Shown: positions 1,801 through 18,752, numbered from the stretch's first letter. The stretch: DNA of 64,000 bases from an uncultured Pseudomonadota bacterium (GCA_964604015.1 CAZRXF010000006.1:16487-80486), one strand, 5' to 3'. The notes: generated by a model from the letters alone, not told the origin. A program made the numbers and translations.

Positions 1801-1808
1801 GAGTCACC

Positions 1809-2228: not shown

Positions 2229-2260
2229 GCATTAGAAATTGAACGAGAGAGGGATAGTGC

Positions 2261-3885: not shown

Positions 3886-3898
3886 TCACAAAAACTAA

Positions 3899-3928: not shown

Positions 3929-3958
3929 AAATTTACATCACAATAAAAACTTTCGCTG

Positions 3959-6900
3959 CTACTGCAGTACAAGAAGCCCGTTTGATGTACTCATCATCAG
4001 ACAACCCGTATCCCCAATCAAACTCATCCAATAAAACTGATCCGCTTCCGCCACTACTGCCTCTTGCATTGGAGGCTTTCCGCTTGTTCCAACGTTGTAG
4101 TTGTAGAGGTTATAGGGCAGAACGACAACCTGATATTTTCTGTCATTGTCTGGATTTTTCTGTACAAAATAGCGCCGTATACCATCATCGTAAAAACAAC
4201 GAGCAAGGACAGGGAAATTCTTATAAGAAGTAGCAGTTGTCGGCACAAACGACATGGTCCCGTTATAGTTAGGGGTCGGCAATTTTGCATACGTAATAGC
4301 GTTTGTCAGGGTTGGAGCAGCAGTTAAAAAGCCCTGCCGTAACATCTGATAGGATGTATTGTTGTTGTAGACTGCGCCCAATGCTGGGTTAGAAACAAAA
4401 TTTGAGAACCAGAACGTTTGCGGATCCCGTGTATAAGCAGGAACTTGAATATAATCAGTAAAGAACATACGCGTAATGACTGGTGAAGTACTGTCTATCA
4501 CCTGCCATCCAGCACTTGTTTGGTTCAGATTTCCCGAATTTGCAGCCTGCATGCCAATGCTTGATGAACTTGTATAAATACCATCACTGGTGAGTAACAA
4601 CAGCTGTTCATAGCCGGTTGCCGGGGTTGCTCCTGCAACAGCGGGTGTTGCCGATACGGATACTACAAAATCATAGATCTGACGCGCAGTTGCGAGATTA
4701 TCCGTGGCAGAAACTGCTGTTACCACAAATCCATTAACCACACCTGACCCGGTAGCCTGAGCCGCAGCACTATAAAGACGATCAACTGTTCCGGTTCGTG
4801 CCAGAACATGAAGCCCACCACCCATGCTTTGAATTTTAACTGGCATACCGGTGACACTCGTAACCAAATTCCACTTACCCGTTCCCGGAGCGCCTGCAGA
4901 TGTGACCAGGCCTAGATCCACCATGGCTCCTGCACCAGAACCACCAACGGCGGCTGAAGCTCCGAGCGTGACTGGATTAAATCCAGCCCCCGCCAACGTT
5001 CCTGAGGGAGTATAGATATAGAGTCCCGGAGCCACGGTTGCAGTACCGGCACATCCAGCAAAGAAAAATCCTGTCGTTGCACCAGTTGTAGTATTTGGAT
5101 CCCATCCAGACCACCCAAGGCTCACCACAGCACCAGCCCCTGCAGGAAGCGATGACGTGTAGAACGTTGCAGTATTGGTAAAATCATACAAAGTATCTGC
5201 AAACGAATTATTAATGGTTGTGTACGTACCATTGGCCGTAATTGCTGTAATGCCTCTTGATCCTGTGATGGCAAAACATACTTTTTCTTCCCCTCCAAAA
5301 AGGGTCATCCGCATAGGTGTTGCAGAGCCCCACCCGGTCGTTGATGCATTTAAATCAAGAACAGAGTAACAAGTATCATTCAAAGCGTTGTTCACCGCTG
5401 ATGCAAGGTACGGCAAACTGTTAGGAGTAGCAGTTGTTGGTTTTGACCATTGGGTCAGATTCACCTTTAAACTCACTGAGTTATAGGTAGCAATGTACCC
5501 GGTGTACCCATCAATCGCTGCAAAATCCACACGCGGGTCACTGCCATCAGAGGCAACACCATTGCCCGACTGTCCGCCCATATCGTTTGGCGCAGCTTTT
5601 TGCCAATCGGTCCAGTGATCAATTTGGCCCAGCTCATTAAAGACTGCCTGGGACATCCAAAATCCCGGTTCATTGATACTGCTTGCAGGATTTGACCCTC
5701 CCGTTGCGGCATAGACCGTATCACCATCACAGGAAATCAGATTCAGGAAATTTGGTGCAGGTTGCCCGTTAAGTAGACTATTGGTTACTGGAAGAATCCC
5801 TGTTCCTCCGACCAGAGCTGCTGGAGATGCCGTGGTGATCAGGTCCCCTGCAACTGTAGCAATAAGAGTACGGTCTCCTGAATGAACATTGGCAAAGCAA
5901 CCAACATTCGGATTTACATTCGGATCACCATTAACCAATGGTATTGCATAGATCTGATTAGCAACAGCCTGCTGCGCGTTCGCCACCGTATCAGAAGCAA
6001 TGACAGCTCCGCTTATAATTAAATACCCCATTCCCGTTGACGTATGCATAACCGCTATATCACCTGCTGCTGACACTGTTGTTGCACCATTTTGCGAATA
6101 TCCAATAATGCTATTTGCTACGGTCACCGGAGCTGTACTTGCACACGGGGCAAGTTGATTTCCCACAGTAACAGTTTGTCCACTCGTACTAAATGGATAA
6201 ATCCCAACACCATATAAGCCATTTGTCCTTCCCACGTTAGCCGCAACTGTCCCCTCTACTGTCACGTAAAATCGTTGAAAGGGAGCATCAACATGGAAAT
6301 GTGTCGCACCAACACTCGTGAGAGGAGTGGCTCCATCGCTAATAAGAAACGAACCTGTCGCGGTTAGATCAAATGCAGTAGCAACATTAGTTGCCCCATT
6401 TGCCCCTACATAGTTCCACACCGGAACGCCTGCACTTGTTTGTGTAATGTATGCAGCGCTAATGCCATCCGTTTTCACCCCCGTAGTTCCAGCAACTCCA
6501 GCTCCAAAAGGAGTTGCCAACGTACCTCCCTGAACTTTAAGCGGAACAATGGTCACATTTGCTGCGCTTGGGGTAACATCATAGGCACAGTGAGCGTATA
6601 CCAATGCACCATTTGGATTTCCTGCAGGATCATTAAAGACGGGACTTTGTACCGCTGCCGTGTGAGTTTTTGTAATGGCTTGTAAGACCGTAGCATTGTT
6701 AACCAAAGCAACAATAGTTGGAGCATCAAGATCTGACGAGTTTTGTACGGGAGACAACGCACGAATATACTGATCGGTTAGCGCAGGATCTGTTGCTAGG
6801 GGGATTAAAGAATGATCCGTCGAGCGCAATGACCCGTAGCACACTGCATAAGTTCCATTATTGGGAAACAACCCTAGATACGCCTCAGAAAGTGGAAAAT

Positions 6901-7072
6901 AGGTATGGCCCGTGTTTATGCCATTATTTCCCAGAGAGAAGGTTGTCCCATTGGCTGTCCCCGGATAGGTACCATTCCCCGCAATCGTCACATAAGCAGC
7001 TGCCTGCTGCGAAATACACAATAGCCCTACTACCATTCCAAGTGCTGTAATTTTGTTCAGCAGTCCTTTCAT
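3959..7072 (-). CDS. very large secreted G/T/A/N/S-rich protein, candidate major surface (S-layer/adhesin-like) protein
   Basis: 1037-aa ORF with a signal peptide (MKGLLNKITALGMVVGLLCISQQAAA|YV). Composition is strongly biased with few charged residues and no recognisable catalytic motif. It is monocistronic, with its own terminator and a 135-bp upstream region. Confidence 0.8.
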   Translation of the reverse strand: MKGLLNKITALGMVVGLLCISQQAAAYVTIAGNGTYPGTANGTTFSLGNNGINTGHTYFPLSEAYLGLFPNNGTYAVCYGSLRSTDHSLIPLATDPALTDQYIRALSPVQNSSDLDAPTIVALVNNATVLQAITKTHTAAVQSPVFNDPAGNPNGALVYAHCAYDVTPSAANVTIVPLKVQGGTLATPFGAGVAGTTGVKTDGISAAYITQTSAGVPVWNYVGANGATNVATAFDLTATGSFLISDGATPLTSVGATHFHVDAPFQRFYVTVEGTVAANVGRTNGLYGVGIYPFSTSGQTVTVGNQLAPCASTAPVTVANSIIGYSQNGATTVSAAGDIAVMHTSTGMGYLIISGAVIASDTVANAQQAVANQIYAIPLVNGDPNVNPNVGCFANVHSGDRTLIATVAGDLITTASPAALVGGTGILPVTNSLLNGQPAPNFLNLISCDGDTVYAATGGSNPASSINEPGFWMSQAVFNELGQIDHWTDWQKAAPNDMGGQSGNGVASDGSDPRVDFAAIDGYTGYIATYNSVSLKVNLTQWSKPTTATPNSLPYLASAVNNALNDTCYSVLDLNASTTGWGSATPMRMTLFGGEEKVCFAITGSRGITAITANGTYTTINNSFADTLYDFTNTATFYTSSLPAGAGAVVSLGWSGWDPNTTTGATTGFFFAGCAGTATVAPGLYIYTPSGTLAGAGFNPVTLGASAAVGGSGAGAMVDLGLVTSAGAPGTGKWNLVTSVTGMPVKIQSMGGGLHVLARTGTVDRLYSAAAQATGSGVVNGFVVTAVSATDNLATARQIYDFVVSVSATPAVAGATPATGYEQLLLLTSDGIYTSSSSIGMQAANSGNLNQTSAGWQVIDSTSPVITRMFFTDYIQVPAYTRDPQTFWFSNFVSNPALGAVYNNNTSYQMLRQGFLTAAPTLTNAITYAKLPTPNYNGTMSFVPTTATSYKNFPVLARCFYDDGIRRYFVQKNPDNDRKYQVVVLPYNLYNYNVGTSGKPPMQEAVVAEADQFYWMSLIGDTGCLMMSTSNGLLVLQ

Positions 7073-7146
7073 ACGAAACCCCTTTTTTGGTTGTATCTTT
7101 ATTTTTCAGGTCGTAAGCGCCTTCTCATAATAGGTCTACCATTTTT

Positions 7147-7180
7147 ACAAAAACAAACAAAAAACCGGCAGGACGCCGGC
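7147..7180 (-). terminator. intrinsic terminator after nusB
   Basis: On the minus strand, ccggc-gtcct-gccgg is followed by ttttttgtttgttttt. Confidence 0.65.
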
Positions 7181-7207
7181 TTTTAATTTTGGAACAACTT
7201 TTGATGC

Positions 7208-7690
7208 TTACTGAATAGACGAAAGGTCTTTGTAGTCGTATTTCTTGTGCTTTTCCATGTTCTTAGCAACCTCGTCTAAGATCCCATTGATGAACTTGTA
7301 AGCATCTTTTTCTGAATAACTTTTAGCAAGTTCAATCGCCTCGTTGATGATGATCGTAGCAGCTATTTCCGTATTGATAAGTTCCCACAAGGCAAGACGC
7401 AACACGAGACGTGTGCACGTACCAAGACGCTCAAGGCGCCAATTTGCAAGAAGCGGTTTGACCGTTTCATCAAGCACTTCCCGCTCATTGATGATAGCAC
7501 GCGCAATGGTTGCCACCTCCCCATCAAGAGGAATTTGCATATCATACGCACGATTGAAATTCTCGATGACCGATTCAAGAGAAACGGTGTACTCAAACGA
7601 TTCCATCGCATACAGAATCTGAATGATCAATGATCGAAAATCGCGCCGTGTTGTTGCTAAAAGAGGTGTAGTCCCCGTCGTCTCTTCCAT
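7208..7690 (-). CDS. nusB: transcription antitermination factor NusB
   Basis: NusB-like helices (RRDFRSLIIQILYAMES, LERLGTCTRLVLRLALWEL, IINEAIELAKSYS). The ORF track opens at 7774 inside efp; the ATG at 7690 is preceded by GGGAAG and avoids that overlap. Confidence 0.88.
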   Translation of the reverse strand: MEETTGTTPLLATTRRDFRSLIIQILYAMESFEYTVSLESVIENFNRAYDMQIPLDGEVATIARAIINEREVLDETVKPLLANWRLERLGTCTRLVLRLALWELINTEIAATIIINEAIELAKSYSEKDAYKFINGILDEVAKNMEKHKKYDYKDLSSIQ

Positions 7691-7709
7691 GCTTCCCTGC
7701 CCGTTCCTG

Positions 7710-8270
7710 TTAAACGCGTTCAATGTATGAATTGTCGCGCGTATCAACTTTGATCTTCTCGCCTTCGTTAACAAACAAAGGAACTTGAATGGTTACCCCT
7801 GTTTCCAACTTAGCTGGCTTTGTTGCACCACCTTGTGCTGTATCGCCACGAACACCAGGGGGCGTTTCTGTAACCTGAAGAATCATGAATAACGGAGGGG
7901 TAACACCGATCGGACGTTCTCTGAAATAGAGCATTTCGTACGCTTCTTGTTCCTTGAGGTACCCGAGCACGTCTTCAAGAACATCTTTGTTCAGAGCAAC
8001 TTGATCGTAACTTTCCTGGTCCATAAAGTTATACAGGTCACCATCTGAATAGAGGTACTGCATTGACCGACGTTCAAGCTGGGGATTTTCGAATTTTTGT
8101 TCAGAACGGAAGTTTTCTTCAAAGCTCGAACCGGTAATTAGATTTTTAAGCTTAGCGCGAACAAGAGCACCACCACGCCCCATTTTATTGTGCTGGAAAT
8201 CGAGCACCACATGTGGTTCATCGCGCAGCAAAATCTTTGTACCTTTGCGAAAATCGGTAGCTGATATCAT
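7710..8270 (-). CDS. efp: elongation factor P
   Basis: 186-aa ORF with the N-terminal KOW-like region FRKGTKILLRDEPHVVLDFQHNKMGRGGALVRAKLKNL, followed by two OB domains. Confidence 0.95.
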   Translation of the reverse strand: MISATDFRKGTKILLRDEPHVVLDFQHNKMGRGGALVRAKLKNLITGSSFEENFRSEQKFENPQLERRSMQYLYSDGDLYNFMDQESYDQVALNKDVLEDVLGYLKEQEAYEMLYFRERPIGVTPPLFMILQVTETPPGVRGDTAQGGATKPAKLETGVTIQVPLFVNEGEKIKVDTRDNSYIERV

Positions 8271-8427
8271 CGGGTCTCCTTATAACTTAAATTTATTGAG
8301 CAAAAAGACGTACCAATCAGTATAAAACGCCTGCCATAAAAAGCAATTACGCTGCCCCGTCTTTCACAAAATGCCCAAAAGCGCTAGCCTACAAAGGCCT
8401 AAACAGCCCCTAAAGAAAGAAGCGTCC

Positions 8428-9681
8428 ATGGACATGAAATTTTTAAAAAACATAGACCCAACCGTTGCAACCATTATCGATCACGAAGCAGAACGTCTTG
8501 AGAAAACGATTAATCTTATCGCCTCAGAAAATTACACGTGGCCTGCAGTCATGGAAGCAAGCGGCTCGGTACTCACCAACAAATACGCTGAAGGATATCC
8601 CGGTAGACGCTACTACGGCGGCTGCACGTATGTTGATGAAGTGGAAGATGTTGCCCGTCAGCGCTGCGCTCAACTGTTTGGAGCTGAACATGTGAACGTA
8701 CAACCACATGCAGGTTCGCAAGCAAACATGGCAGTCTACTTTGCTGCACTCAAACCAGGCGATACGATCCTTGGGATGAACTTAGCAGCAGGTGGACACT
8801 TAACCCATGGCTATCCGATTAATTTTTCAGGCACCTTTTACAAGTACGTGAACTACGGCGTGAACCGAGACACTGAAGCACTTGATTACGATGAAATTCA
8901 GAAACTTGCAGTTGAACATCGCCCCAAGATCATTGTGTGTGGCGCTTCTGCCTATTCACAAATTATCGATTTTGAAAAATTTGCTGCCATTGCACGATCT
9001 ATCGATGCATTCTTACTTGCTGATATTGCCCACATTGCAGGGCCTATCGCCGCAGGTTTGCACCCTTCACCAATTGCACATGCCGATTTTGTCAGCAGCA
9101 CCACACACAAAACATTACGCGGTCCTCGCGGTGGCTTGGTGATGTGTAAAGAACCCTATGCCCAACAACTTGATAAAGCAGTCATGCCGGGGCTTCAGGG
9201 CGGTCCTTTGATGCAACAGATCGGAGCAAAAGCGGTTGGATTTCTGTATGCACTCCAACCAGAATTTAAAACGTATCAAAAACAGATTCTTGAAAATGCC
9301 CAAACCATGGCCGAAGCATTCACCGACCTTGGCTACCGCATTGTTTCAGGTTCAACAAAAAATCATTTGATGGTGATTGATCTACGTGCACAAAACATTA
9401 CCGGCAAAGAAGCGGAAGAACTCCTAGGAAGCATCGGCATAACGCTCAACCGCAACTGCATTCCGTTTGACCCGCAAAAACCATTGATCACCAGCGGTAT
9501 CAGAATAGGGACACCCGCCATCACTACCCGTGGTTTTAAAAAACAAGAAGCGCAAGAAGTCGTCCATATCATTCATGAAGCATTACACAAGAGGACTGAT
9601 CTTCACGCGCTTAACGTTTTGGCAGAGCGGGTACAACAACTGTGTGCTGCGCACCCGATCTATGCACAAGGTACTTATTAA
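8428..9681 (+). CDS. glyA: serine hydroxymethyltransferase
   Basis: LIASENY, GYPGRRYYGG and the PLP-lysine motif SSTTHKTLRGPRGG. The ORF opens at 8371, but the ATG at 8428 (MDMKFLKNIDP) matches normal SHMT N-termini and follows a purine-rich AAAGAAAGAAG. Confidence 0.93.
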   Translation: MDMKFLKNIDPTVATIIDHEAERLEKTINLIASENYTWPAVMEASGSVLTNKYAEGYPGRRYYGGCTYVDEVEDVARQRCAQLFGAEHVNVQPHAGSQANMAVYFAALKPGDTILGMNLAAGGHLTHGYPINFSGTFYKYVNYGVNRDTEALDYDEIQKLAVEHRPKIIVCGASAYSQIIDFEKFAAIARSIDAFLLADIAHIAGPIAAGLHPSPIAHADFVSSTTHKTLRGPRGGLVMCKEPYAQQLDKAVMPGLQGGPLMQQIGAKAVGFLYALQPEFKTYQKQILENAQTMAEAFTDLGYRIVSGSTKNHLMVIDLRAQNITGKEAEELLGSIGITLNRNCIPFDPQKPLITSGIRIGTPAITTRGFKKQEAQEVVHIIHEALHKRTDLHALNVLAERVQQLCAAHPIYAQGTY

Positions 9682-9684
9682 GAA

Positions 9685-11832
9685 TTAATCAACTTCTTCC
9701 ATAGTGGCTGAAGCAACAGTACCTGAGCCTTGAGAAAGCTCACGCCCCCCCAAGATTGGTCTCATTTTTGCTCCGTAGTTGTTAGTGCGTCCATACGTTG
9801 ACAGAGGATTATCAGTGAAATACTTTTTAATGGCAGCTTCTTTTTTTGCAGCAGCAGCAACAGCTTCCTGATAGGCACCAAAATCATTTTCAGCATCCAT
9901 TGCCGTTTGTAAGAATTGTGCAGTAGCAAATTCTGCTAAAAGCGCTTGCTGCTCAGGCGTCATCCCACCTACAACTACTCCTGTAACAGCGTCTCTAACT
10001 GGAAATTTTCCTTCAACCATCTCGTTTTGAAGATCAACAAGATGCTGCGCAAGCAGGTTTACCGCTGTTTCAAACGTCTGTTCAGACAAAGCAAGTTTTT
10101 TCAAATCACTCAGCAGATGGCGCTTAAATTCAGCAGGGGTTAAATTCTTTTTGTGTCTACCGTACAATCCTTCAATTTTGCTTTGAAGGTTATCTCGATA
10201 CAATTCAAAAAAGGTCCTTAATGTTTCAGCATCTGAAAATGCTAGTCCGTTTAATTTCGTCAAAAATTCTCGATACTGCTGTGCGCGAGCCGCTTGTTTT
10301 GCTTCGTTTTGCTCAGCTTCTTGCAACGCTGCAACCAAACTATCAAGATCAAATTCAGAGGCACTAAGTGGTAAGGCTACATTTTCACGGATCTGAGCTC
10401 TTGATTGAGCGAGAGCTTCCTCAGCTCTTCTCAAAACTGTTGCTGCATCAAGCTCTTCTTCCATCTTCAGACGCTTTACTTTTCGCCCAGCTACCTTGTT
10501 GGTATGTTTTCGTTTACCTGAAGGCGACGGCTGTGCTTCATAGACTGGCGTAAGTTCATCCCACATAACATCCTGCAACGTAGCAAACGCATTTACAAAA
10601 GCATCAACTGCCAAGGCATATTCTGCTTCATTGAGTTGATGTTTCCCCAACTGCGCAAGCATCTCTTGTCGTATCTCATCGCGCGTTAAAATGCGGCCAA
10701 GGTCATCCCATCTAGACTCAATTCTTGCTCGAATGGCTTCCTGACGAGGAGCAAAAAACGCTTCCACAGCCGCAGCATCTGCAGCTATACGATTCAATGT
10801 TTTTAAATCTTCTACAACCACTGATCTTCGAGTTGGCATTCCTTGGTCAATCCATTGCAACAACTCTCCTGCTTGCGCTTCTGTAAGTCGTGCAAAAAGT
10901 TCTTCATCTTCAATATCTGACAATAGTCGTGCTGCTTGTGCCTCTGTAAGTTGGGCAAGAAGCGTATCCAGATCTTCTTCTTTAGCACGATGTACTTGTG
11001 CCAGCTTTCGTGCCTCTTCAAATAAAGCAACATCAGTTGCCATAAGGTGATTTATACGCTCTTCAAGAGCAGTATCTACGATTGAAATCTGTGGACCATT
11101 ATCTTCAAATTCAGGGAGCATCATCGGGTTATACCTCTTTTGCGGTAAAAGACTTGGATGCATTGGAAGGTCTAGATCAATGCTTTCTAAAATATTTCCC
11201 TTATCTTTGATCAATTCGGGGGATATTTCTTCACCAAATGATTCTTCAGATACCTTTCCGCGAGCTTCTTCAAGCTCTGTATCTCTTGAGGGTAAATACG
11301 CATACGGAAGCCCCTCCATATCTCCTCCATAAAGAGCTTGTAACTCCTCATCAGTCAATCCTTCGATTCCTAATGTATCTGCATCAGTTTGGCCAGAAAC
11401 TCCTTGCACATGTAAGACGGGCTGCCCCGATTTATTGGTTGTAACAACCGATGCTTGTGGCGCCTGCTTTGGACCAACGAGCATTTCTATTTGTGACTTT
11501 AAAGCACCAACAGAAGAATCAACAGCGGTAGCCGCTTGTGCTCTATTCAATCTTTTAAGAGCTTCACCAACCACATTTGCAAAGTCATCCAACTTAAAGA
11601 CAACCCCTTCTAATTGCTCTTTGGAAACGTCGCCAATATTCTTTTTAACCGTTTTACCAAGTGATGTTAAAAACATTTGTTGACCAGGCGTCAAAACACC
11701 CTGAACAGAGCTCTCTTTGGTCATTGCAACGAAACTTGCATACGTATCCCCCAGCTTATTTTCTACTGTTTCTGCAGAAAGCTTTGTGCTTACAATAAGC
11801 AGCGCAGCTACCATCCACCATTTCTTCATCAT
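9685..11832 (-). CDS. secreted helical E/A/L/Q-rich protein of unknown function ending in MEEVD
   Basis: 715-aa ORF with a signal peptide (MMKKWWMVAALLIVSTKLSA|ETV). Contains internal duplications (LTEAQAARLL / LTEAQAGELL, and two ~75-aa related modules), the basic cluster KRKHTNKVAGRKVKRLK and the C-terminal ...ATMEEVD*. Its stop lies 3 nt from the glyA stop (convergent). Confidence 0.8.
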   Translation of the reverse strand: MMKKWWMVAALLIVSTKLSAETVENKLGDTYASFVAMTKESSVQGVLTPGQQMFLTSLGKTVKKNIGDVSKEQLEGVVFKLDDFANVVGEALKRLNRAQAATAVDSSVGALKSQIEMLVGPKQAPQASVVTTNKSGQPVLHVQGVSGQTDADTLGIEGLTDEELQALYGGDMEGLPYAYLPSRDTELEEARGKVSEESFGEEISPELIKDKGNILESIDLDLPMHPSLLPQKRYNPMMLPEFEDNGPQISIVDTALEERINHLMATDVALFEEARKLAQVHRAKEEDLDTLLAQLTEAQAARLLSDIEDEELFARLTEAQAGELLQWIDQGMPTRRSVVVEDLKTLNRIAADAAAVEAFFAPRQEAIRARIESRWDDLGRILTRDEIRQEMLAQLGKHQLNEAEYALAVDAFVNAFATLQDVMWDELTPVYEAQPSPSGKRKHTNKVAGRKVKRLKMEEELDAATVLRRAEEALAQSRAQIRENVALPLSASEFDLDSLVAALQEAEQNEAKQAARAQQYREFLTKLNGLAFSDAETLRTFFELYRDNLQSKIEGLYGRHKKNLTPAEFKRHLLSDLKKLALSEQTFETAVNLLAQHLVDLQNEMVEGKFPVRDAVTGVVVGGMTPEQQALLAEFATAQFLQTAMDAENDFGAYQEAVAAAAKKEAAIKKYFTDNPLSTYGRTNNYGAKMRPILGGRELSQGSGTVASATMEEVD

Positions 11833-12040
11833 GATCCGTTCTCCATTTATGTTAGATCAATCATATAATATTTCTAATTGAATTATAAACGAGAGAAAAA
11901 CAGGAAAACAAGGGTCTTGTCTTTTTAAGCTCGGGGAATGCTTAAAGTACATGTTCAGACATTTTTACAATGACGTGTGATAGAATTCACCCGGTAGAGA
12001 CCCTAAAAAATTAAAAATAAGCTCAAAAAAGGAGAATCGT

Positions 12041-12727
12041 ATGAAAGCAGAATTTGATAAGTTCGCAAAAGAGTACCGCACCACCCATAGCACCCCCCTT
12101 GCACTGACCGGAGAAACGAGTGATTTTTTTGCCGAGTACAAGGCGCAAAAATTAGCCGAATGGCTTCCCGAGCTTCTTACCCACGCCCCACGCACCATCC
12201 TTGATTTTGGTTGCGGCGATGGGCTCATGACCAACTACATCCACCAACGATTTCCTGCCGCAAAATTGTACGGCTGCGATCCATCAGCAGAAAGCATTGA
12301 GGTGGCACAAAAAAATCACCCTTCAATCTCTTTTGCCGTTTCAGGCACAACACTCCCTTTCAAAACGGCACAGTTTGACGTGATAGTAGCAGCAGGAGTT
12401 TTCCATCACATTCCGTTTGAAGAACATACAGCGTATTTACAGGAACTGGACCGCGCACTTGCACCAGATGGAGTACTGGTCCTTTTTGAACTCAATCCAT
12501 TTAACCCTGGCACTCGATATATTTTTAAGCATGCCCCGATGGATGCGAACGCAACGATGCTCTATCCCCAGTATGCTCGTAGAATTTTGCAGCCCTATGG
12601 CACCATATCGACAAAATTTTATGGTTTCTTTCCCCACTTTTTACGAAAGTTACGTTGGACTGAGAAGTTTTTGACCAAGGTGCCGCTTGGTGGGTTGTAT
12701 GCTGTGTTTTTACAAAAGACGCCGTAG
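12041..12727 (+). CDS. class I SAM-dependent methyltransferase
   Basis: 228-aa ORF with SAM motif I ILDFGCGDG, post-I LYGCDPS and GVLVLFELN. AAGGAG lies 7 nt upstream of the ATG. Confidence 0.85.
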   Translation: MKAEFDKFAKEYRTTHSTPLALTGETSDFFAEYKAQKLAEWLPELLTHAPRTILDFGCGDGLMTNYIHQRFPAAKLYGCDPSAESIEVAQKNHPSISFAVSGTTLPFKTAQFDVIVAAGVFHHIPFEEHTAYLQELDRALAPDGVLVLFELNPFNPGTRYIFKHAPMDANATMLYPQYARRILQPYGTISTKFYGFFPHFLRKLRWTEKFLTKVPLGGLYAVFLQKTP

Positions 12728-12791
12728 GAGTGTATTACCACCCCTTTCTACAACCTTACTCTTTTAAGTACAAGACGCATGCATGCGCTCT

Positions 12792-13225
12792 GCGCGCAGC
12801 ACCAAAGGTATGCTTGTCCATACCTTTGGAATCAAGACACAAGCATGCTGCTTGACTGCCTCTACGGCTCCAATCCTCGTTGCCTCCTATCGGTGGACAA
12901 CTCAGTTCCGCCTGAGAGGGAATAAATTACTAGAGCATTTGTGAACGAGTGAGATGCTTTAAGTGCAATCACATGGCAAACATCCCCCCGGGATAGGAGG
13001 GGGAGAGGATCAGACCAAGAAGTCCATATAGGAGGTTTGGAGGAACAACCAAGTGAGACAAGGTAAAGAGGAACTGAAGGTTCCTGTGTCTTTATCAGGG
13101 CTTCTGTCTGAGGGTCATCGCCCAGAGGGCGTGACGCGAGTTGATGCCCGTCGTAGCGATCAATCCGCAGGATTGTGCCTTGCTTCCAAAGTAATGGGCA
13201 AGCATTACTTTGGCGCCTGCCCTGC
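12792..13225. other. unassigned structured non-coding element bounded by inverted ~50-bp hairpin-containing repeats
   Basis: The left arm 12792..12844 and right arm 13171..13225 are reverse complements of each other (about 43 of 50 positions by hand alignment). Each arm holds a perfect 11-bp hairpin (12802..12829 and 13186..13213). The interior looks GC-richer by eye and is full of short hairpins. It lies between two convergent gene ends. Confidence 0.4.
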
Positions 13226-13260
13226 GTAAGGGCACACATACTTCTTGTGTAAAAGAAAAA

Positions 13261-14388
13261 TTATCTAAAAAAGCACGTTTGTTGTAGCGCCCACAACAAA
13301 GAATGAATACCATAGAACGTTGCGATCGTACAAAAACCGATAAGATACGGAATAATAGGAATCGTTGCCAGACCAGGAAGTGCGCAAAATCCAAGTGCAA
13401 GGGCATAGGAAAGATCGAGGTACCACGGCTTGCGATAAAAAAACGCAGCAAGAAGACCGATGTTAGCAAACAACAGCAGGTAGTAAAAAAGAATGCCCGT
13501 TTTAGCAAACAGCTGCCGTAGCACATAGTTTTGATGGGTCATGCAGATGGCAAAAACTTCATTACGCAAAACGCGATCATACTCAGGAGAACAGTACTTG
13601 ATGTCAGGATCAATCTGACGCGCTCGAGCTAAAGCACAACTGTCGTTGTACGCAATGCCATAATCATTTGAAATAAATCCAAGGCCAACGTAGATGCTGT
13701 GCCAAAAGGCATGCTGCAATTCAAAGTGCCCATACGGAATATTCTGGGACTGCAAATATGCGTTGCGCGCTGTCATGACCGAATTAAACCAGGTATGATA
13801 CGTGCCCATACCACAGACAAGCAGCACACAGACCAACAAACTTTTTTTCATCTGACGTGTGTAAAAAAGCACGGTACACACGAGCATGATACCCAAACCC
13901 CACCCGCCAAAAAGACGGATCGAATTTACAAAGCTCACCACAAACCCAGACACAAAACTGAGACAAAAGAGCCCTGGATTGCTCTTTTTTTCGAGACAGA
14001 CAAAGATCCAGGGAATAAAAGCGCAGGCAAAAAATGGCGCGAGATAGGTATCACCGACCAACCATGCAACTGTCCCTACTCCGATAACTCCGACACTAGC
14101 TACTGCTCGTCCAGGCCAGGTCTTTGCAAGGAACCAAAATCCTGTACAGGCAATGAGTGCTCCTGTTGTAACAAACGCAAGATCCCACCACCACAATGCT
14201 TGTTCTATCGACAGCGCAAACATACGAGCGAGCCGAGGAACAAAGTAAAAAAGTTCCGCGTCGCTGCCAAAACTGTTTTCAAGCGGGGTCACAACTCCAT
14301 CTCGCAAACGAAGGAACGGAAATTCGGTAAGATTCCAGGCTTCAAGCGTCTCTTGCAATGCACGTAGTCGGCAGGAAGAAATCGGCAT
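13261..14388 (-). CDS. polytopic integral membrane protein, possible GT-C-type glycosyltransferase or polymerase partner of the upstream GT2
   Basis: 375-aa ORF with about 9-10 hydrophobic helices. It starts 3 nt after the GtrB/ArnC-like GT2 stop. No motif could be assigned. Confidence 0.6.
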   Translation of the reverse strand: MPISSCRLRALQETLEAWNLTEFPFLRLRDGVVTPLENSFGSDAELFYFVPRLARMFALSIEQALWWWDLAFVTTGALIACTGFWFLAKTWPGRAVASVGVIGVGTVAWLVGDTYLAPFFACAFIPWIFVCLEKKSNPGLFCLSFVSGFVVSFVNSIRLFGGWGLGIMLVCTVLFYTRQMKKSLLVCVLLVCGMGTYHTWFNSVMTARNAYLQSQNIPYGHFELQHAFWHSIYVGLGFISNDYGIAYNDSCALARARQIDPDIKYCSPEYDRVLRNEVFAICMTHQNYVLRQLFAKTGILFYYLLLFANIGLLAAFFYRKPWYLDLSYALALGFCALPGLATIPIIPYLIGFCTIATFYGIHSLLWALQQTCFFR

Positions 14389-14391
14389 TTC

Positions 14392-15345
14392 TTAGCCCTT
14401 CTTTTTTTCCGGGGTAAACCCAACTGTTTCATCAACCACGTAGAGCGGCCGCTCTTTTTGTTGGTCGTACATTCTGCCGATGTATTCCCCCAAGAACCAC
14501 ATCAAAATGCATTGCACTCCCATGAAGATGTAGATGATAGTTACCAGCCATTTAAAAAGTGGATATCGAACGCCGCGCAAAAATGCATCAAAAGCGATGT
14601 AAACAAACATCAGCGATCCAGTAAGGATGATGAATACACCAGCAAAGGCAGCTATCCGTAACGGGAAGAGCGAAAATCCGGTAAACCCATCAAATCCCAA
14701 TTTCAGGATTTTGAACCAACTATAGCCAGAACTTCCAGCTGCTCGTTCAGGTCTATTAAAGTCGACATAGGTATGTGTAAACCCGGTCCAGGCAACAATG
14801 CCACGCAGATAGCGAGCACGTTCTCGGCACAACCGAACTTGCTCAAGTACACGCTTATCGATAAGCCGAAAATCTCCCACGTTGCGCGGAATGGAAACAT
14901 CGGCAACAGAATGCAAAAGCTTGTAATACAATGTTGCAGTCATATCTTTTAAAAAACCGTCATTGCGTGAAATGCGACGTGCATACACAATGGCAAATCC
15001 TTCTTCCCATTTTTTGACCATTTCATAGATCAGCTCAGGTGGATCTTGAAGATCAGCATCGAGTCCTATGATCGCATCCCCATCAACCGCATCATATCCA
15101 GCGGTTAATGCCATTTGGTGACCAAAGTTACGGGTAAAACAGATACCCTTGATGCGAAAATCTTGACGCGCCAATTCCTGTATGATCTGCCATGATCGAT
15201 CTCGGCTCCCATCGTTCACCAACACCACTTGCGCATCATAGTTTTCGGTGCAAGAGTTCATCAACTCAGACAGTTTTTTATAAAGCAGCGGCAGATTTTG
15301 CTCTTCGTTATACACGGGAACAACAAAAGAAAGTTTCTTTTTCAT
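14392..15345 (-). CDS. GT2 polyprenyl-phosphate glycosyltransferase (GtrB/ArnC/DPM1-like)
   Basis: SFVVPVYNEEQNL, VLVNDGSRDRS, RNFGHQMALTAGY and GLDADLQDPPELI, plus two C-terminal TM helices. The ATG at 15345 makes an ATGA overlap with the upstream stop (the ORF track starts at 15360). Confidence 0.88.
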   Translation of the reverse strand: MKKKLSFVVPVYNEEQNLPLLYKKLSELMNSCTENYDAQVVLVNDGSRDRSWQIIQELARQDFRIKGICFTRNFGHQMALTAGYDAVDGDAIIGLDADLQDPPELIYEMVKKWEEGFAIVYARRISRNDGFLKDMTATLYYKLLHSVADVSIPRNVGDFRLIDKRVLEQVRLCRERARYLRGIVAWTGFTHTYVDFNRPERAAGSSGYSWFKILKLGFDGFTGFSLFPLRIAAFAGVFIILTGSLMFVYIAFDAFLRGVRYPLFKWLVTIIYIFMGVQCILMWFLGEYIGRMYDQQKERPLYVVDETVGFTPEKKKG

Positions 15346-16385
15346 ACAAGTGAGGGACATGACGTTGTACGGGCTGCAGGCAGTAGCGTTTGATACGGAT
15401 GCTCTTCAAAAAAATTACGATACCAAGTACACGTTTCTTGAAGGCCCTTTTCTGCACCAAAAACAGCTTTCCATCCAAGTAGTTCACGTGCTTTTTTACA
15501 GGAAAGATACTGTTCAGGAATTTCACCCGATGCATTATTTTGAATAATAGGTTCGTACTGCTCTTTACCCATTGCTTGCGCAATCAGTGCTACCATTTCA
15601 AGAACCGCCAACGGACGCTCTTCACTCAAGTTGAATATCTGCCCAACTACTGCTGGATTATCCATCTGCTGTGCAATCGTCAGATAGCCATCTACGACAT
15701 CTTTTACGTAGACATAGTCACGCACCAAAAGACCATTTGAACGAATAATGGGACGTTCATCATGAAGCAGTGAACGAATGGTGGCTGGTACGATACGGTT
15801 GAAATGCAAATCGCCACCACCAAAAATGTTACCACACCGCGTTACACAGACCGGTAACTGGTAGGTATGAAAATACGATTGTGCAAGAAGATCCGAACAA
15901 CTTTTTGAGACATCATACGGATGCTTAGCAAGCAGCGGCATATCTTCCGTGTAGGGAAGTATTTCAGCAGTTCCATATGCTTTATCGCTCGATGCAACCA
16001 CGATCTTTTTCACCCAAGGAGATAATCGGCACGCTTCAAGCAGGTTCCAGGTCCCTTCAATATTTGAATGAAAGGTCGAAAGGGGCGAACGATTGGCATA
16101 CCCAACAATTGCCTGAGCTCCAAGATGAAACACCGTTTCGATATCAAACTCATTAAGAATCCGGAGGAGTGACTGAAAATCACACAGATCACCAGTAACG
16201 TATGAAACTTTATCTTCAAGACTGTGCGTTGCTAACAATGAAAGCGGAACACGATCACGCACAAGCACCGTAACTGACGCACCCTGAGTAACAAGTTCTT
16301 CGACTAACCATCCACCCAGAAGCCCTGTTGCGCCTGTTACAAAAACCGACCGGTTTTTCCACAGAAACCTTTGCTCCTGCACCAT
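15342..16385 (-). CDS. SDR-family NDP-hexose 4,6-dehydratase (CDP-glucose 4,6-dehydratase-like)
   Basis: 347-aa ORF with the N-terminal FLWKNRSVFVTGATGLLGGWLVEEL Rossmann motif, SSDKAYG and the catalytic YDVSK (YxxxK). rfbF is present in the same cluster. Confidence 0.8.
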   Translation of the reverse strand: MVQEQRFLWKNRSVFVTGATGLLGGWLVEELVTQGASVTVLVRDRVPLSLLATHSLEDKVSYVTGDLCDFQSLLRILNEFDIETVFHLGAQAIVGYANRSPLSTFHSNIEGTWNLLEACRLSPWVKKIVVASSDKAYGTAEILPYTEDMPLLAKHPYDVSKSCSDLLAQSYFHTYQLPVCVTRCGNIFGGGDLHFNRIVPATIRSLLHDERPIIRSNGLLVRDYVYVKDVVDGYLTIAQQMDNPAVVGQIFNLSEERPLAVLEMVALIAQAMGKEQYEPIIQNNASGEIPEQYLSCKKARELLGWKAVFGAEKGLQETCTWYRNFFEEHPYQTLLPAARTTSCPSLV

Positions 16386-16485
16386 TTTTTTAGACCTTTT
16401 TAAAATCTACAATCCTTTTTTCCACCGCGTGTGGACCTTAGTTTTCTCTTTTTTAGGAAAAAAAGCAAAGCCTTTTTAGCTGCAA

Positions 16486-17097
16486 TTAGAGCTCACTATG
16501 ATCGACAATTTTCTGAACATGCGAGCGCCACGTATACTGATTCAATGCCTTCTTGCGCGCATTTTCTCCCATTTTTATTCGTTCATGTTCTGAAAGTGCT
16601 GCAACGTATAAACAGGCATCCACAAATCCTTGAATATCGTGATGGTTCACCAAAATTCCCACTTCATCAGTCACTGGTTTTTGCTCCTTACGAATATCGG
16701 ACACGTACAACGCAGGGCTTACAATTTCTGCAACTTGCTCAAGATCGGATGCAATGACGGGACGGGCCATACTTAAATATTCAAACAATTTGGTCGGAGA
16801 ACCAAAAAACCGAGAACCATCACTGTTTGGTTGTGTAGGACATAAAAAGGCATCACAGTGCACGAGATGCGAAGGTACTACACTCGGTACAATTTTTCCC
16901 GTAAACGTAACGTGTGGCAGTACTCCTTCACGGCGCAACTGTTCTTCAAGAGCCACCCGACCAGCGCCCTCCCCCACCAACAAAAAATGAGCTGCATGTT
17001 CCTGCTTTACCACCTGAGGAATAAGTTCCTGAAGCACGTCCACACCATGCCAGGGACCAAAAGTTCCTAAAAAACCGAACGTTATTTTTGTACGCAT
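16486..17097 (-). CDS. C-terminal (donor-binding) half only of a GT4/GT-B glycosyltransferase, either a split gene or a disrupted remnant
   Basis: 203-aa ORF starting at the post-linker motif TKITFGFLGTFGPWHGVDVL, followed by FLLVGEGAG, VTFTGKI and FLCPTQ...FGSPTKLFEYLSMARPVIASD. There is no N-terminal Rossmann domain and no obvious SD. The matching N-terminal half is at 27979..28608. Confidence 0.7.
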   Translation of the reverse strand: MRTKITFGFLGTFGPWHGVDVLQELIPQVVKQEHAAHFLLVGEGAGRVALEEQLRREGVLPHVTFTGKIVPSVVPSHLVHCDAFLCPTQPNSDGSRFFGSPTKLFEYLSMARPVIASDLEQVAEIVSPALYVSDIRKEQKPVTDEVGILVNHHDIQGFVDACLYVAALSEHERIKMGENARKKALNQYTWRSHVQKIVDHSEL

Positions 17098-17205
17098 AGC
17101 GCAGTCACTTTTAAGGCAAAAAGGTTTATAAACGAAATGGACTTTTTCCTGCTTTTGGAATAAGTACTGTAATCTCTTAAATTTTTTTTGAAAGAAAGGA
17201 GCCGT

Positions 17206-17394
17206 ATGAAAATCGTAACGCTCGCACTTCTTTTGCTCCCCTCACTTGCTCACGCCTATATTGATCCAGGTACTGGCAGCTATCTCCTTCAACTTCTGCT
17301 TGCAGGCGGATTGGGAGCACTGTACACCATCAAGACCTACTGGAGTTCGATCAAGGCATATTTTTCAAGCTTTGGTAGAAAAAAGGATAAGTAA
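17206..17394 (+). CDS. small membrane protein with a YIDPGTGS motif
   Basis: 62 aa from the ATG at 17206 (AAGGAG 4 nt upstream; the ORF track uses a TTG at 17188). It has a signal-like N-terminus, a second hydrophobic helix and a basic tail. Its stop TAA overlaps the next gene's ATG (TAATG). Confidence 0.6.
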   Translation: MKIVTLALLLLPSLAHAYIDPGTGSYLLQLLLAGGLGALYTIKTYWSSIKAYFSSFGRKKDK

Positions 17395-18752
17395 TGGAAA
17401 AAGTTGCAGGATCTTTCCGTGACCCAAGTGGCTATCTCTTTTGGTCCGAAGGTACTCTTAACCGCTCGATAGCCCCTTCGTACTTTCCTCACTATGACGC
17501 ACTCATGTCATCAGGACTGTATCAAAGCCTCATCGATAAAAAATTACTGATTTCTCATACTGAAAAAACGGAGCATTGGTCGAAACAACAACGAGTCATT
17601 GCGCCACAGCTTGTGCCATTCATCTCGTATCCGTATGAGTGGTCCTTCAGTCAACTGAAAGACGCTGCTCTTCTAACCCTTACCATCACCAAAGAAGCAC
17701 TTTCACATGGCATGATCCTCAAAGACGCCTCTGCTTACAATGTCCAGTTTATAGGGTCACACCCGATCTTTATTGATACGCTTTCTTTTGAAAAGTATGA
17801 AGCAGGAAAGCCATGGATTGCATACAAACAGTTTTGTGAACAGTTCTTGGCTCCTCTGGCACTCATGGCATACACAGACATCAGACTTAACTCTTTATTA
17901 AAAGTTAACACACAAGGGGTTGCGCTCGATCTGGCAGCAAAACTTTTACCGTTCAAAACGTATTTTAAACTCCCACTCCTCCTGCATATTCACCTCCATG
18001 CTAATGCACAAAAAAAGTATGAATCTCAGTCAACCAAGAAAACTACTGCTACCGTTTCTCAGACACAGCTTTTAGGACTTCTTGATAACCTGGAAAGTGG
18101 CATAAAAAACTGTACCTACCATGCAACTGGTACCGAATGGGCGGACTATTACAACGACGACAGCTACACCACCACAGGATTTGCAGATAAAAAACGCCTG
18201 GTTGGAGAATTCTTTGCCCTGGCCCAACCAAAAACAACGTGGGACTTGGGAGCAAACAATGGAGAATTTAGCCGCTTAGCAACACAGCACAGCGATCTCG
18301 TTCTTTCCATGGATATCGACCCAGCCTGTGTTGAAAAAAATTATTGTGCCGCCAAGAAAGAACAAAATCAGAAACTTTTGCCTTTGCTTATCGATCTGAT
18401 GAACCCAAGCTGTGCGCTTGGATGGGCAAACAAAGAACGTCAGAACTTGCAAGAACGTCCTCACCCTGATTGCATCCTTGCACTTGCGCTGATACATCAC
18501 CTTGCCATTTCAAACAACGTGCCCCTGGAAGCAGCTGCCGCGTATTGTGCTTCATTAACAACCTGGCTCATCATTGAGTTCGTACCTAAAGAGGATAAAA
18601 AGGTAAAAACATTGTTACAAAGCAGAGCCGATATTTTTGACACCTACGACCAAGACAATTTTGAACACAGTTTTTCCCAATATTTTACCGTTCTTTCAAA
18701 AGAACAAATTAAAGAATCGAAGCGAGCAGTATATTTGATGAAAAAATTATGA
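17394..18752 (+). CDS. two-domain SAM-dependent methyltransferase-like protein
   Basis: 452-aa ORF with an N-terminal SFRDPSGYLF domain and a C-terminal Rossmann-type motif TWDLGANNGEFSRLA ... LSMDID ... ILALALIHHL. Confidence 0.7.
   Translation: MEKVAGSFRDPSGYLFWSEGTLNRSIAPSYFPHYDALMSSGLYQSLIDKKLLISHTEKTEHWSKQQRVIAPQLVPFISYPYEWSFSQLKDAALLTLTITKEALSHGMILKDASAYNVQFIGSHPIFIDTLSFEKYEAGKPWIAYKQFCEQFLAPLALMAYTDIRLNSLLKVNTQGVALDLAAKLLPFKTYFKLPLLLHIHLHANAQKKYESQSTKKTTATVSQTQLLGLLDNLESGIKNCTYHATGTEWADYYNDDSYTTTGFADKKRLVGEFFALAQPKTTWDLGANNGEFSRLATQHSDLVLSMDIDPACVEKNYCAAKKEQNQKLLPLLIDLMNPSCALGWANKERQNLQERPHPDCILALALIHHLAISNNVPLEAAAAYCASLTTWLIIEFVPKEDKKVKTLLQSRADIFDTYDQDNFEHSFSQYFTVLSKEQIKESKRAVYLMKKL

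Follow-up and report, generated by a model that had tools for sequence, protein, structure and literature searches.

A Secreted Helical Protein Ending in the Hsp90-Type Pentapeptide MEEVD: A Candidate Ligand of Host TPR Proteins from an Uncultured Bacterium

Results

Gene Locus and Boundaries

The window, a stretch of 64,000 nucleotides of DNA from an uncultured bacterium, carries an open reading frame (ORF) of 715 codons that converges with glyA and diverges from a methyltransferase gene (Table 1). Translation of the ORF (9685..11832, minus strand) yields a product of 715 aa whose last residues, ...SATMEEVD, are followed by TAA, and the position of MEEVD directly before the stop was thus as the initial annotation had described it. 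The same protein with the same stop was found on five independently assembled contigs from several wastewater samples; because these contigs agree, an assembly or stop-codon artefact was rejected as the origin of the ending. None of the RNA sequencing runs searched for the gene contained it, and the contigs of partly matching runs held no allele with an alternative C-terminus, only a fragment of about 82% identity corresponding to part of module 1. The N-terminus is kept in all relatives, which supports the gene start together with the GGAG element. Promoter-like sites carry no statistical weight, as two were observed against 4.4 expected in shuffled sequences.

The window also encodes several ORFans with Sec signals and a secreted PP2C. 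The PP2C gene, noted earlier, is real, and a Sec signal appears when it is read from an internal start. The secreted ankyrin protein claimed for the same stretch is a weak case, the ORF at 51744..52442 giving only a sub-threshold Ank match (E 0.024).

Table 1. Positions of the gene, its elements and its neighbours in the window, in the direction of the gene's transcription; a slash marks the signal peptide cleavage site.
Feature	Position	Strand	Basis or remark
SAM-dependent methyltransferase, divergent neighbour	12041..12727	+	Context gene
Promoter-like TTTATA-18-TATGAT, within 208-bp divergent intergenic region	11860..11889	-	Consensus match only; weak
Shine-Dalgarno-like GGAG, 8 nt 5' of ATG (ATG at 11832)	11841..11844	-	Read directly off the sequence
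Whole gene, 715 codons + TAA stop (9685..9687)	9685..11832	-	ORF translation; identical product on 5 independent contigs
Sec-type signal peptide, aa 1-20, MMKKWWMVAALLIVSTKLSA/ETV	11773..11832	-	Inspection; cleavage junction kept family-wide
N-terminal helical domain, aa 21-120	11473..11772	-	AF2 pLDDT 75-87; dN/dS 0.26
Acidic linker, predicted disordered, aa 121-257, net charge -17	11062..11472	-	pLDDT <50
Short motif LDLPMHPSL inside disordered linker	11149..11175	-	Family consensus L[DA]LP[MIV]H[PH]SL
Duplicated helices LLAQLTEAQAARLL and LFARLTEAQAGELL, aa 291-325	10858..10962	-	z = 7.4 against shuffles
Helical module copy 1, aa 336-428, end ...TLQDVMWDEL	10549..10827	-	pLDDT 73-84
Basic cluster KRKHTNKVAGRKVKRLK, aa 440-456, net +9, bipartite-NLS-like	10465..10515	-	Shortly behind module 1, in a predicted-disordered segment
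Helical module copy 2, aa 522-606	10015..10269	-	pLDDT 60-72
C-terminal tail, predicted disordered, aa 675-715	9688..9810	-	pLDDT 31-34; likewise in P0007
Terminal pentapeptide M-E-E-V-D-COOH	9688..9702	-	ORF translation; proposed ligand of clamp-type TPR domains
glyA (SHMT), convergent; stop 3 bp from target's stop	8371..9681	+	Same layout in orthologous contig L001

Protein Architecture

By inspection, the protein begins with a Sec-type signal peptide composed of the n-region MMKK, the hydrophobic core WWMVAALLIVSTK and the cleavage junction LSA/ETV. The n-region is basic, the core has a mean Kyte-Doolittle value of 1.45, and a small residue stands at -1. The junction ..A/[EQ]T[VL] is common to all family members, and the clear Sec signal peptide of the initial annotation is therefore backed by conservation across the family as well as by inspection; alternatively, the segment may act as an uncleaved signal anchor. 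The N-terminal helical domain that follows is shared more widely in the family than any other part and occurs in P0003-P0009 and the neighbour gene on contig L087, including paralogues with other C-terminal halves. The acidic linker is the most variable part, with 31% identity to the orthologue and with indels. The duplicated LTEAQA helices are kept in the family as LLAxLTxxQ, and the two helical modules, of about 90-95 aa each, align with z = 14.4 against shuffles and occur in one to three copies per family protein, confirming that the internal duplications reported for the gene are genuine in both cases.

Disorder was read from low pLDDT in models built on shallow alignments of 9 and 5 sequences, and by this measure large parts of the protein are low-complexity or disordered. 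Several short motifs are nonetheless conserved within the predicted-disordered regions across the family. Scans of the protein against Pfam and NCBIfam gave no domain above threshold, nor did a Pfam scan of the family members and neighbouring paralogues. A profile-based sequence search of the PDB returned no match, and the Foldseek matches in the PDB were all generic helical bundles with E >2.

The basic cluster behind module 1 had been described as NLS-like. The segment KR-KHTNKVAGRK-VKRLK (aa 440-456) lies in a low-pLDDT region and fits KR-X10-(3 of 5 basic), in line with the bipartite definition of (K/R)(K/R)-X10-12-(at least 3 basic of 5) in an accessible segment. Its basic density was matched in 1.4% of shuffles, and some bipartite match arose in 15% of them. 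In most family members, a dense basic cluster stands behind a module at the same relative position; some bipartite match was found in all nine members examined, but also in 5-17% of their shuffles. The closest orthologue keeps KRKR and lacks the bipartite form at the cluster site, and dN/dS at the cluster is about 1, over only 20 codons. The position of the cluster is thus retained, whereas its exact bipartite form is absent from the closest orthologue.

A Secreted Family with a Conserved Tail

An exhaustive HMMER search yielded a family of secreted helical proteins with about 10 members. A scan of GTDB genomes with the protein found no relative, a word-index search with a 9-sequence profile found only two proteins already known, and a metagenome scan with a 5-sequence alignment added one further member only, L091, which lacks the tag. 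Tandem paralogues adjoin a secreted ankyrin gene, and clusters of secreted paralogues are also present. Five members end in [M/W]-[E/D/N]-[E/D]-[V/I]-[D/N] (MEEVD, MEDID, WNEVD, MDEVN and MEDVD), with P5, the fifth residue from the end, being M, M, W, M and M, although these proteins are otherwise only 20-30% identical overall. The mean pairwise BLOSUM62 score of the five tails is 1.7-4.0 at P1-P5 versus -1.5 to +0.5 at P6-P20, that is, conservation of the tail reaches precisely as far as P5 and no further.

A single MEEVD ending would prove little, because EEVD-like endings arise by chance, in free-living bacteria included. The chance rate, which the initial annotation had proposed to estimate, was determined here in unrelated genomes: among 1370 ORFs, the relaxed motif occurred once, in an Exiguobacterium ORF ending in LMEDVD, and strict EEVD did not occur. 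What goes beyond chance is the conservation of the tail across the family and not one ending. Conservation among homologues, also raised at the outset, is partial. Of the roughly 12 family members and paralogues, 5 carry the tag, and its absence from about half of the family counts against host docking. P0004, for instance, is the positional orthologue of the MEDVD-tailed P0007, yet it ends in WWDQIY.

The gene evolves rapidly. Its dN/dS is 0.46, versus 0.034 for glyA and 0.055 for the methyltransferase gene at equal dS (0.53-0.60), corresponding to non-synonymous evolution at about 10 times the rate of its neighbours, and many indels are present. Such values might be expected of an envelope or periplasmic structural protein with no host target, in which the ending would be inherited but neutral and the fast evolution a sign of weak constraint. 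A dN/dS of 0.46, being below 1, can be explained by relaxed constraint without invoking positive selection, the domain searches identified nothing of known function, much of the protein is low-complexity or disordered, and an ending that half of the family lacks, of a kind that occurs by chance, would need no function. Drift, however, would not hold just P1-P5 while P6-P20 are scrambled at 20-30% identity, and the last 30 aa, with a dN/dS of 0.28, are among the most constrained parts of the protein and more constrained than its average. Short motifs kept in disordered regions are, moreover, typical of interaction motifs, and the family adjoins ankyrin genes in an apparently host-dependent lineage with RING-finger genes elsewhere in a sister genome. 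Taken together, these data make a purely structural role rather unlikely.

Fit of the Tails to TPR-Ligand Specificity

The specificity of the eukaryotic TPR proteins that receive EEVD ends has been described at the level of single residues. CHIP needs a free carboxylate, Asp at P1, Val at P2 and Ile or Met at P5, with P3 and P4 being dispensable (PMC8913300). PP5 favours a bulky P5, Trp above all, together with Glu or Asp at P4 and P3 and Val, Ile, Pro or Leu at P2, and WEEVD and WDDVD bind PP5 better than the natural tail (PMC11259706). [quoted passage not shown] The end of the window protein, VASATMEEVD, agrees with all four, as do those of P0002 and P0003. The last residue is Asp or Glu in these three proteins and in P0007; P0005, which ends in ...MDEVN, has Asn at P1, and P0007 and P0005 have one Lys each among the last 10 residues. 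A hydrophobic P5 was found in all five tagged members. Apart from two Asn replacements, the substitutions within the family are those that clamp-type TPR profiles tolerate or prefer. P0005 is a misfit because CHIP and PP5 depend on a side-chain carboxylate at P1, which Asn does not offer, and this residue counts against host docking.

The same residue bears on the idea that the tail acts in the host, or within the protein itself, through something other than a clamp-type TPR domain: the CTD I of class B J-domain proteins, a masking of the basic cluster, or mimicry of an Asp-protease product. Class B J-domain proteins recognise EEVD tails by their carboxylate and P5, with no need for the Asp side chain at P1, so that ...MDEVN would be accommodated, but DnaJB4 prefers IEEVD to MEEVD (PMC8913300), and P5 in the family is Met or Trp. 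Masking would suit the charges of the basic cluster (+9) and the tail (-3), both in flexible segments, although a charge mask alone needs neither Val/Ile at P2 nor a hydrophobic P5. As for a protease product, protist metacaspases cleave after basic residues, not after Asp. We regard all of these non-TPR routes together as improbable.

Export and the Role of the Tag

Since Sec delivery leads to the periplasm, envelope proteins would be met first, and the pentapeptide might be read by a bacterial partner, either as an outer-membrane sorting or secretion signal or as the place where a tail-specific protease, or a TPR or PDZ protein of the periplasm, would dock; later action in the host would still be possible. 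Bacterial secretion and quality control often rely on signals recognised at the C-terminus, and an N-terminal domain common to paralogues with different cargo suggests a common handling step. Paralogues that share this domain and the signal peptide lack the tag, however, indicating that the tag is unneeded for export of the family. The tail is also unlike a type I signal, which is about 50 aa long and goes with a missing Sec signal, and unlike a beta-sandwich CTD or a hydrophobic sorting helix. Tail-specific proteases prefer a non-polar ending, which the tag does not offer, and the substitutions permitted in the tail closely fit eukaryotic clamp-TPR profiles. Recognition by a bacterial partner is, on this evidence, doubtful.

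Other identities of the tail were considered and rejected. KDEL, PTS1 and PDZ-binding endings were dismissed by inspection, the tails being neither xDEL nor SKL nor [ST]-x-Phi. Type I, T9SS CTD and sortase/exosortase signals were rejected in view of a tail predicted to be disordered, without a hydrophobic helix, and the presence of a Sec signal, and a Dot/Icm-like C-terminal signal in view of the Sec signal and of a lineage that is not Legionellales.

Lineage and Lifestyle

The bacterium is most likely a member of the Dependentiae with a life inside protists, an assignment that was made from relatives of about 58% identity and a sister genome and not from this genome itself. The two AlaRS relatives with a credible name, 58% identical, are from 'Candidatus Babeliales bacterium'. 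One AlaRS match at 70% is labelled Alteromonas, but its source, a 17-kb MAG contig, is probably a binning error. The best GlyA match is a Dependentiae MAG, only marginally nearer than others, with 55-61% identity to many phyla, and a search of the related loci for an rRNA gene found none. A contig of 1.05 Mb (L095) is syntenic with the window, has housekeeping proteins 76-92% identical to those encoded there, and carries RING-finger genes. A contig of equal length carries the WNEVD-tailed paralogue. The locus of this paralogue was read on the 662-kb contig L087, where an ATP/ADP translocase gene (TLC, near P0010) is about 10 kb away. These hallmarks of parasitism, ATP/ADP translocase and RING-finger genes, were thus seen in the sister genome and not in the window; they suggest a lineage that appears host-dependent.

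To our knowledge, the Dependentiae are widespread, almost uncultured, and without a recognised injection system. In Chromulinavorax, a cultured member, signal peptides are found on 44% of CDS and 78% of ankyrin proteins, and Sec signals on presumed effectors are the rule in the phylum (PMC6561590). The signal peptide of the window protein is a weak discriminator for this reason, as 44% of CDS have one. Chromulinavorax also sheds vesicles and sits in the host cytoplasm wrapped by a mitochondrion (PMC6561590).

Discussion

The window protein shares with cytosolic Hsp90 an identical MEEVD, a free carboxy-terminus and a tail end predicted to be flexible, and the tagged family reproduces the binding determinants of the Hsp90 and Hsp70 tails, namely a hydrophobic P5, Val or Ile at P2 and, P0005 excepted, Asp at P1. 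The likeness ends there. The ATPase, middle and dimerisation domains of Hsp90 and the domains of Hsp70 are absent from the window protein, which is bacterial and Sec-exported, and an identity as an Hsp90 or Hsp70 homologue was rejected because only the pentapeptide is shared. The bacterial chaperones HtpG and DnaK have, as far as we know, no EEVD.

We propose, with a probability of roughly 0.4, that the product of the gene is modular, is exported through Sec and interacts with the host, its free C-terminal tag docking to TPR co-chaperones or receptors there. It would serve a parasite living within protist cells, either as an effector or as a factor exposed on the surface, and after export by Sec it would reach the host cytosol by outer-membrane vesicles, surface exposure or another outer-membrane step. 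Contact with the host cytosol is plausible, because at least one cultured member of the Dependentiae lies in the host cytoplasm. We know of no recognised mechanism, however, that takes a Sec-exported protein past the outer membrane into a host, and this counts against host docking. Once there, the free MEEVD carboxy-terminus would enter the two-carboxylate clamp with which TPR proteins of the host ordinarily take up Hsp90 or Hsp70 tails, candidates being Hop/Sti1, PP5, CHIP, FKBP-type immunophilins, SGT and Tom70-type receptors. The TPR protein might then be drawn to the site bound by the helical modules, or host chaperones might face competition for it, and the basic cluster may contribute import into the nucleus or binding to membranes or nucleic acids. 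Of the earlier suggestion of a chaperone-mimicking effector, this retains what the motif confined to the last five residues, the predicted-disordered tail and the apparently host-dependent lineage favour; chaperone homology is absent, and about half of the family is untagged.

Non-chaperone proteins that dock TPR domains through EEVD-like ends have precedents. USP19, Bcl-G, Tom20, Rpn13, ELP1 and caspase-generated ends bound by CHIP are of this kind (PMC6212638, PMC11259706). Proteins of the USP19 type are, however, host proteins already in the cytosol, whereas the window protein is foreign and secreted, and its binding is a prediction. Intracellular microbes are well known to secrete proteins that act by motif mimicry: in C-terminal PDZ-binding motifs, CaaX boxes and KDEL-like toxin ends, a few C-terminal residues likewise copy a eukaryotic docking signal. 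The window protein resembles such effectors in fast evolution, modularity and disorder, the imitated signal here being the EEVD tag. A further parallel is Hsp70-x of Plasmodium falciparum, a true Hsp70 that is exported into the host cell and ends in EEVN; it has Asn at P1, as does P0005, but the present family is without chaperone domains. Full-text literature searches for a bacterial protein copying the EEVD tag found no precedent. Within the same likely phylum, the ankyrin proteins of Chromulinavorax destructans and Babela massiliensis bear the same Sec-type signal (PMC6561590). The family described here is, like the presumed effectors of the Dependentiae, ORFan-like, expanded and adjacent to ankyrin genes; unlike the ankyrin proteins, it has no ankyrin or other eukaryote-like domains, its marks being an N-terminal domain peculiar to it, a helical module of about 90 aa in repeated copies and short motifs.

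In a more specific and rather speculative variant, which we hold to be improbable, the tail would tether receptors on the surface of host organelles, such as Tom70-type receptors on mitochondria, or other Hsp90/Hsp70 co-chaperones, and so pull the ATP-producing organelle or the chaperone machinery onto the parasite; a bacterium in the host cytoplasm would for this purpose display the protein or release it, and the free MEEVD end would fit the chaperone-docking clamp of the receptor. Amoebae possess Tom70, and the N-terminal clamp of Tom70 binds EEVD (PMC7583919). If true, this tethering would provide a molecular handle on the mitochondrial wrapping around Chromulinavorax and would be the first known bacterial mimic of the chaperone EEVD code.

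The EEVD tag is a common address label of the eukaryotic Hsp70/Hsp90 system. Should host docking fail, the proteins described here would still form a new secreted family that is restricted to one lineage, evolves fast and conserves several short motifs. If the tail does bind host TPR proteins, it would represent a new class of host-manipulation signal and the first known mechanistic lead on Dependentiae effectors, and its five-residue signature would be searchable in the proteomes of symbionts and pathogens.

Target gene and its product

The target protein ends ...GTVASATMEEVD, followed by TAA, in agreement with the initial annotation, which had placed MEEVD directly before the stop. Exactly the same protein and the same stop are carried by five contigs independently assembled from several wastewater samples; the C-terminus is therefore not an assembly artefact. 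A GGAG lies 8 nt 5' of the ATG, and the 208-bp divergent intergenic region contains a TTTATA-18-TATGAT match, although such matches are no commoner than in shuffles. The glyA gene is convergent with the target gene, with a stop-to-stop gap of only 3 bp.

The N-terminus, MMKKWWMVAALLIVSTKLSA|ETV, shows all three regions of the proposed Sec signal peptide, and its A|[EQ]T[VL] junction is kept in every relative. The protein is acidic (D+E, 112; K+R, 79) and contains no cysteine. The reported internal duplications proved to be real, as the ~95-aa modules (aa 336-428 and 522-606) gave z = 14 and the LTEAQA helices z = 7 against shuffles, and the basic cluster KRKHTNKVAGRKVKRLK (aa 440-456) does match the bipartite NLS pattern. 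In AlphaFold2 models of the target and its relative P0007, built on shallow alignments, the N-terminal domain and modules form helical bundles (pLDDT 70-87), and the C-terminal pentapeptide lies at the end of a stretch of 40-70 residues modelled with very low confidence.

A rapidly evolving protein family

Nothing significant was found for the target protein in Pfam, NCBIfam, PDB sequences or Foldseek, and a word-index search returned a single full-length homologue, P0002, on a 4.3-kb contig with glyA and a methyltransferase gene as neighbours, as in the window. When 1.84 billion representatives were searched exhaustively with HMMER, seven further relatives of 445-766 aa were recovered, and a metagenome scan contributed one more member (L091). 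Common to all members are a signal peptide, an N-terminal helical domain of ~100 aa and LLAxLTxxQ helices; a ~90-aa helical module with 'LQxEMW' at its end occurs one to three times per protein, and a basic cluster usually lies just downstream of a module. The L[DA]LPxH[PH]SL motif is family-wide except in P0008 and P0009, where it is absent, and is shifted in position in P0005; as L[DA]LP[MIV]H[PH]SL it is shared with P0002-P0007 and L091, and in several members it follows directly on a module ending 'LQNEMW'. Tandem family paralogues adjoin a secreted ankyrin gene in GCA_040384165.1, and in another genome secreted paralogues form a cluster. This protein family is without an earlier description.

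Between the window and the orthologous contig L001, the glyA and methyltransferase products are each 96% identical (dN/dS of 0.034 and 0.055, respectively); the target protein is 51-62% identical, with several indels (dN/dS 0.46), at the same dS of 0.53-0.60 across the three genes. Other secreted ORFans showed 33-38% identity to the syntenic sister contig L095 (1,051,688 bp), and housekeeping proteins 76-92%. Fast divergence of this kind is expected for host-interaction or surface proteins; with dN/dS below 1, the target's rate is not proof of positive selection. Over window 10497..10644, part of module 1, wastewater runs X1 and X3 also contain a low-depth second contig that is ~82% identical (27 of 148 bases differed); a diverged allele or a paralogue is therefore present in the same samples.

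The C-terminal tag and its fit to TPR specificity

The tagged tails of the family are MEEVD (window protein), MEDID (P0002), WNEVD (P0003/P0010), MDEVN (P0005) and MEDVD (P0007). When the five tagged members of this small family were aligned from the C-terminus, the mean pairwise BLOSUM62 score was 1.7-4.0 at positions P1-P5 (P1 being the last residue) and -1.5 to +0.5 at P6-P20, a fall indicating that selection acts on exactly five terminal residues. Five residues are also the size of the peptide gripped by clamp-type TPR domains, the host co-chaperone domains that read Hsp90/Hsp70 tails. Constraint over the last 30 residues is among the strongest in the protein (dN/dS 0.28 vs. 0.46 for the whole protein, two closest orthologues).

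Conservation of EEVD in homologues, a point raised in the initial annotation, held in part: five members are tagged, but about half of the family lacks the tag, including P0004, whose genomic position matches that of the MEDVD-tailed P0007 but which ends WWDQIY. The tag is thus an optional module that has been gained or lost. That the target is purely an envelope protein with a neutral ending seems to us rather unlikely. Among 1370 ORFs from unrelated genomes, one fitted the relaxed family motif (an Exiguobacterium ORF ending LMEDVD); by itself, a single such ending is too common to carry meaning.

Binding by CHIP is dominated by the free carboxylate, P1 Asp, P2 Val and P5 Ile/Met, with Glu at P3/P4 dispensable (PMC8913300). 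PP5 favors a bulky P5, especially Trp, Glu/Asp at P4/P3 and Val/Ile/Pro/Leu at P2, needs P1 Asp, and binds WEEVD and WDDVD tighter than the natural tail (PMC11259706). The substitutions within the tagged family, Trp for Met at P5, Asp for Glu at P4/P3 and Ile for Val at P2, follow the directions allowed by these profiles, with two exceptions: P4 Asn in WNEVD, outside PP5's Glu/Asp preference, and P1 Asn in P0005. All four published sequence features of clamp-TPR ligands (PMC6212638) are present in the window protein, P0002 and P0003; judged by its sequence, the target fits the definition of such a ligand. A bacterial partner reading the tag is an unlikely alternative in our estimate, and use of the tail otherwise than through TPR domains appears improbable.

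Membership of the target in the Hsp90/Hsp70 family was rejected, because the defining feature was looked for and is absent.

Lineage and lifestyle

The window bacterium is a diderm, judging from Skp/OmpH and the O-antigen-like cluster. It comes from wastewater, and family relatives come from lake and other fresh water. For GlyA, a Dependentiae MAG was nearest, only by a slight margin. Two of the three AlaRS relatives with an organism name are 'Candidatus Babeliales bacterium' (58% identity); the third (70%) is labelled Alteromonas and lies on a 17-kb MAG contig that is probably mis-binned. These data indirectly suggest that the genome belongs to Dependentiae. L095 has an AlaRS 85% identical to the window's and is syntenic with it over ~28-50 kb. 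On L087, a 662-kb contig of another assembly, an ATP/ADP translocase gene lies ~10 kb downstream at the P0010 locus; translocases of this type are characteristic of energy parasites.

In Chromulinavorax, a cultured member of Dependentiae, 44% of all CDS encode a signal peptide, as do 78% of those for ankyrin proteins, and export is presumed to run through Sec. The cell sheds vesicles and resides in the cytoplasm of its host, with the mitochondrion wrapped around it (PMC6561590). The main worry, that a Sec signal would tell against an effector role, is removed by this widespread occurrence of signal peptides and by Sec being the presumed route.

Between alaS and pth, L095 carries three inserted genes (12733..15422) that are absent from the window (42044 to 42100). 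Genes 1 and 2 have eukaryote-type RING-finger domains, gene 1 also with a weak DUF5122 match, and gene 3 has a faint DUF5122 match only. The interval resembles a hotspot at which host-manipulation genes are gained or lost.

Other features of the window

Features of the window and their positions
Feature	Position	Strand	Remarks
Surface protein (possible), 1037 aa	3959..7072	-	Sec signal; Gly/Thr/Ala/Asn/Ser-rich; no Pfam match
Target ORF	9685..11832	-	715 aa
L[DA]LP[MIV]H[PH]SL motif, PxxP core	11149..11175		target aa 220-228; inside linker predicted disordered
O-antigen-like cluster	~13000..36500		sugar-nucleotide synthesis, glycosyltransferases, ABC transporter, asparagine synthase
Secreted repeat protein	37157..38821	+	near-exact ~55-aa internal duplication; ...SIWDVLKISPKSGDQAFPLTDDEKKAFLQTVGNRVLENPVGGST... 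present twice
alaS, full-length	39447..42044		separate from the AlaRS paralogue
P-type cation ATPase	43240..45909	-	N- and C-terminal domains of the eukaryotic-style Ca2+/cation pump type
AlaRS catalytic-domain-only paralogue, 422 aa	50095..51363	+	PF01411, E 1.5e-37
Secreted protein, 173 aa	61049..61570	+	two internal repeats; sub-threshold HSBP1 match, E 8e-4
PP2C phosphatase ORF	62431..63459	-	internal ATG gives MKKAFTLLLLATVGITYSLLSA|QTV

The secreted repeat protein has a PPxPP tract rich in proline and, at its C-terminus, a hydrophobic helix, and is only 38% identical to its L095 counterpart (neighbours, 76-92%). The P-type ATPase is 76% conserved and syntenic in the sister genome, and the O-antigen-like cluster, a sizeable biosynthetic outlay for a lineage thought to be very metabolically reduced, is partly kept in L095. 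The PP2C ORF probably begins at the internal ATG, giving a Sec signal with the A|[EQ]TV junction seen in the target family; for the longer ORF, no database record matches the product exactly. The match to HSBP1 (heat shock factor binding protein 1) probably reflects coiled-coil similarity only. GC skew over 1..64000 (2-kb bins) is negative in all but the first bin, even though both strands carry genes, and a position inside one replichore is therefore probable for the window.

Proposed role

What the analysis shows is a fast-evolving modular protein with a Sec-type signal and a conserved five-residue tag at the C-terminal end of a tail predicted to be flexible, in a bacterium whose relatives appear to depend on a host. 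The initial annotation had proposed a host-chaperone-mimicking effector, and we give a probability of roughly 0.4 to docking of the MEEVD end on host TPR proteins after exposure to the host cytosol. The exported protein would meet the host cytosol, where its free end would enter the two-carboxylate clamp of TPR proteins, candidates being Hop/Sti1, PP5, CHIP, immunophilins, SGT or Tom70-type receptors. These might be recruited to whatever site the helical modules bind, or the tail might compete with Hsp90/Hsp70. Nuclear import may be a further function, conferred by the basic cluster, although support for it is weaker than for tail docking.

The target is predicted to be a candidate motif mimic, secreted by an intracellular microbe and using C-terminal short-motif mimicry. 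It is paralleled most closely by those non-chaperone proteins of the host that have EEVD-like ends, and by Plasmodium Hsp70-x. Full-text literature searches returned no bacterial protein reported as an imitator of the EEVD tag. Taken together, the computational case for tag mimicry is a coherent prediction, and one that is cheap to test.
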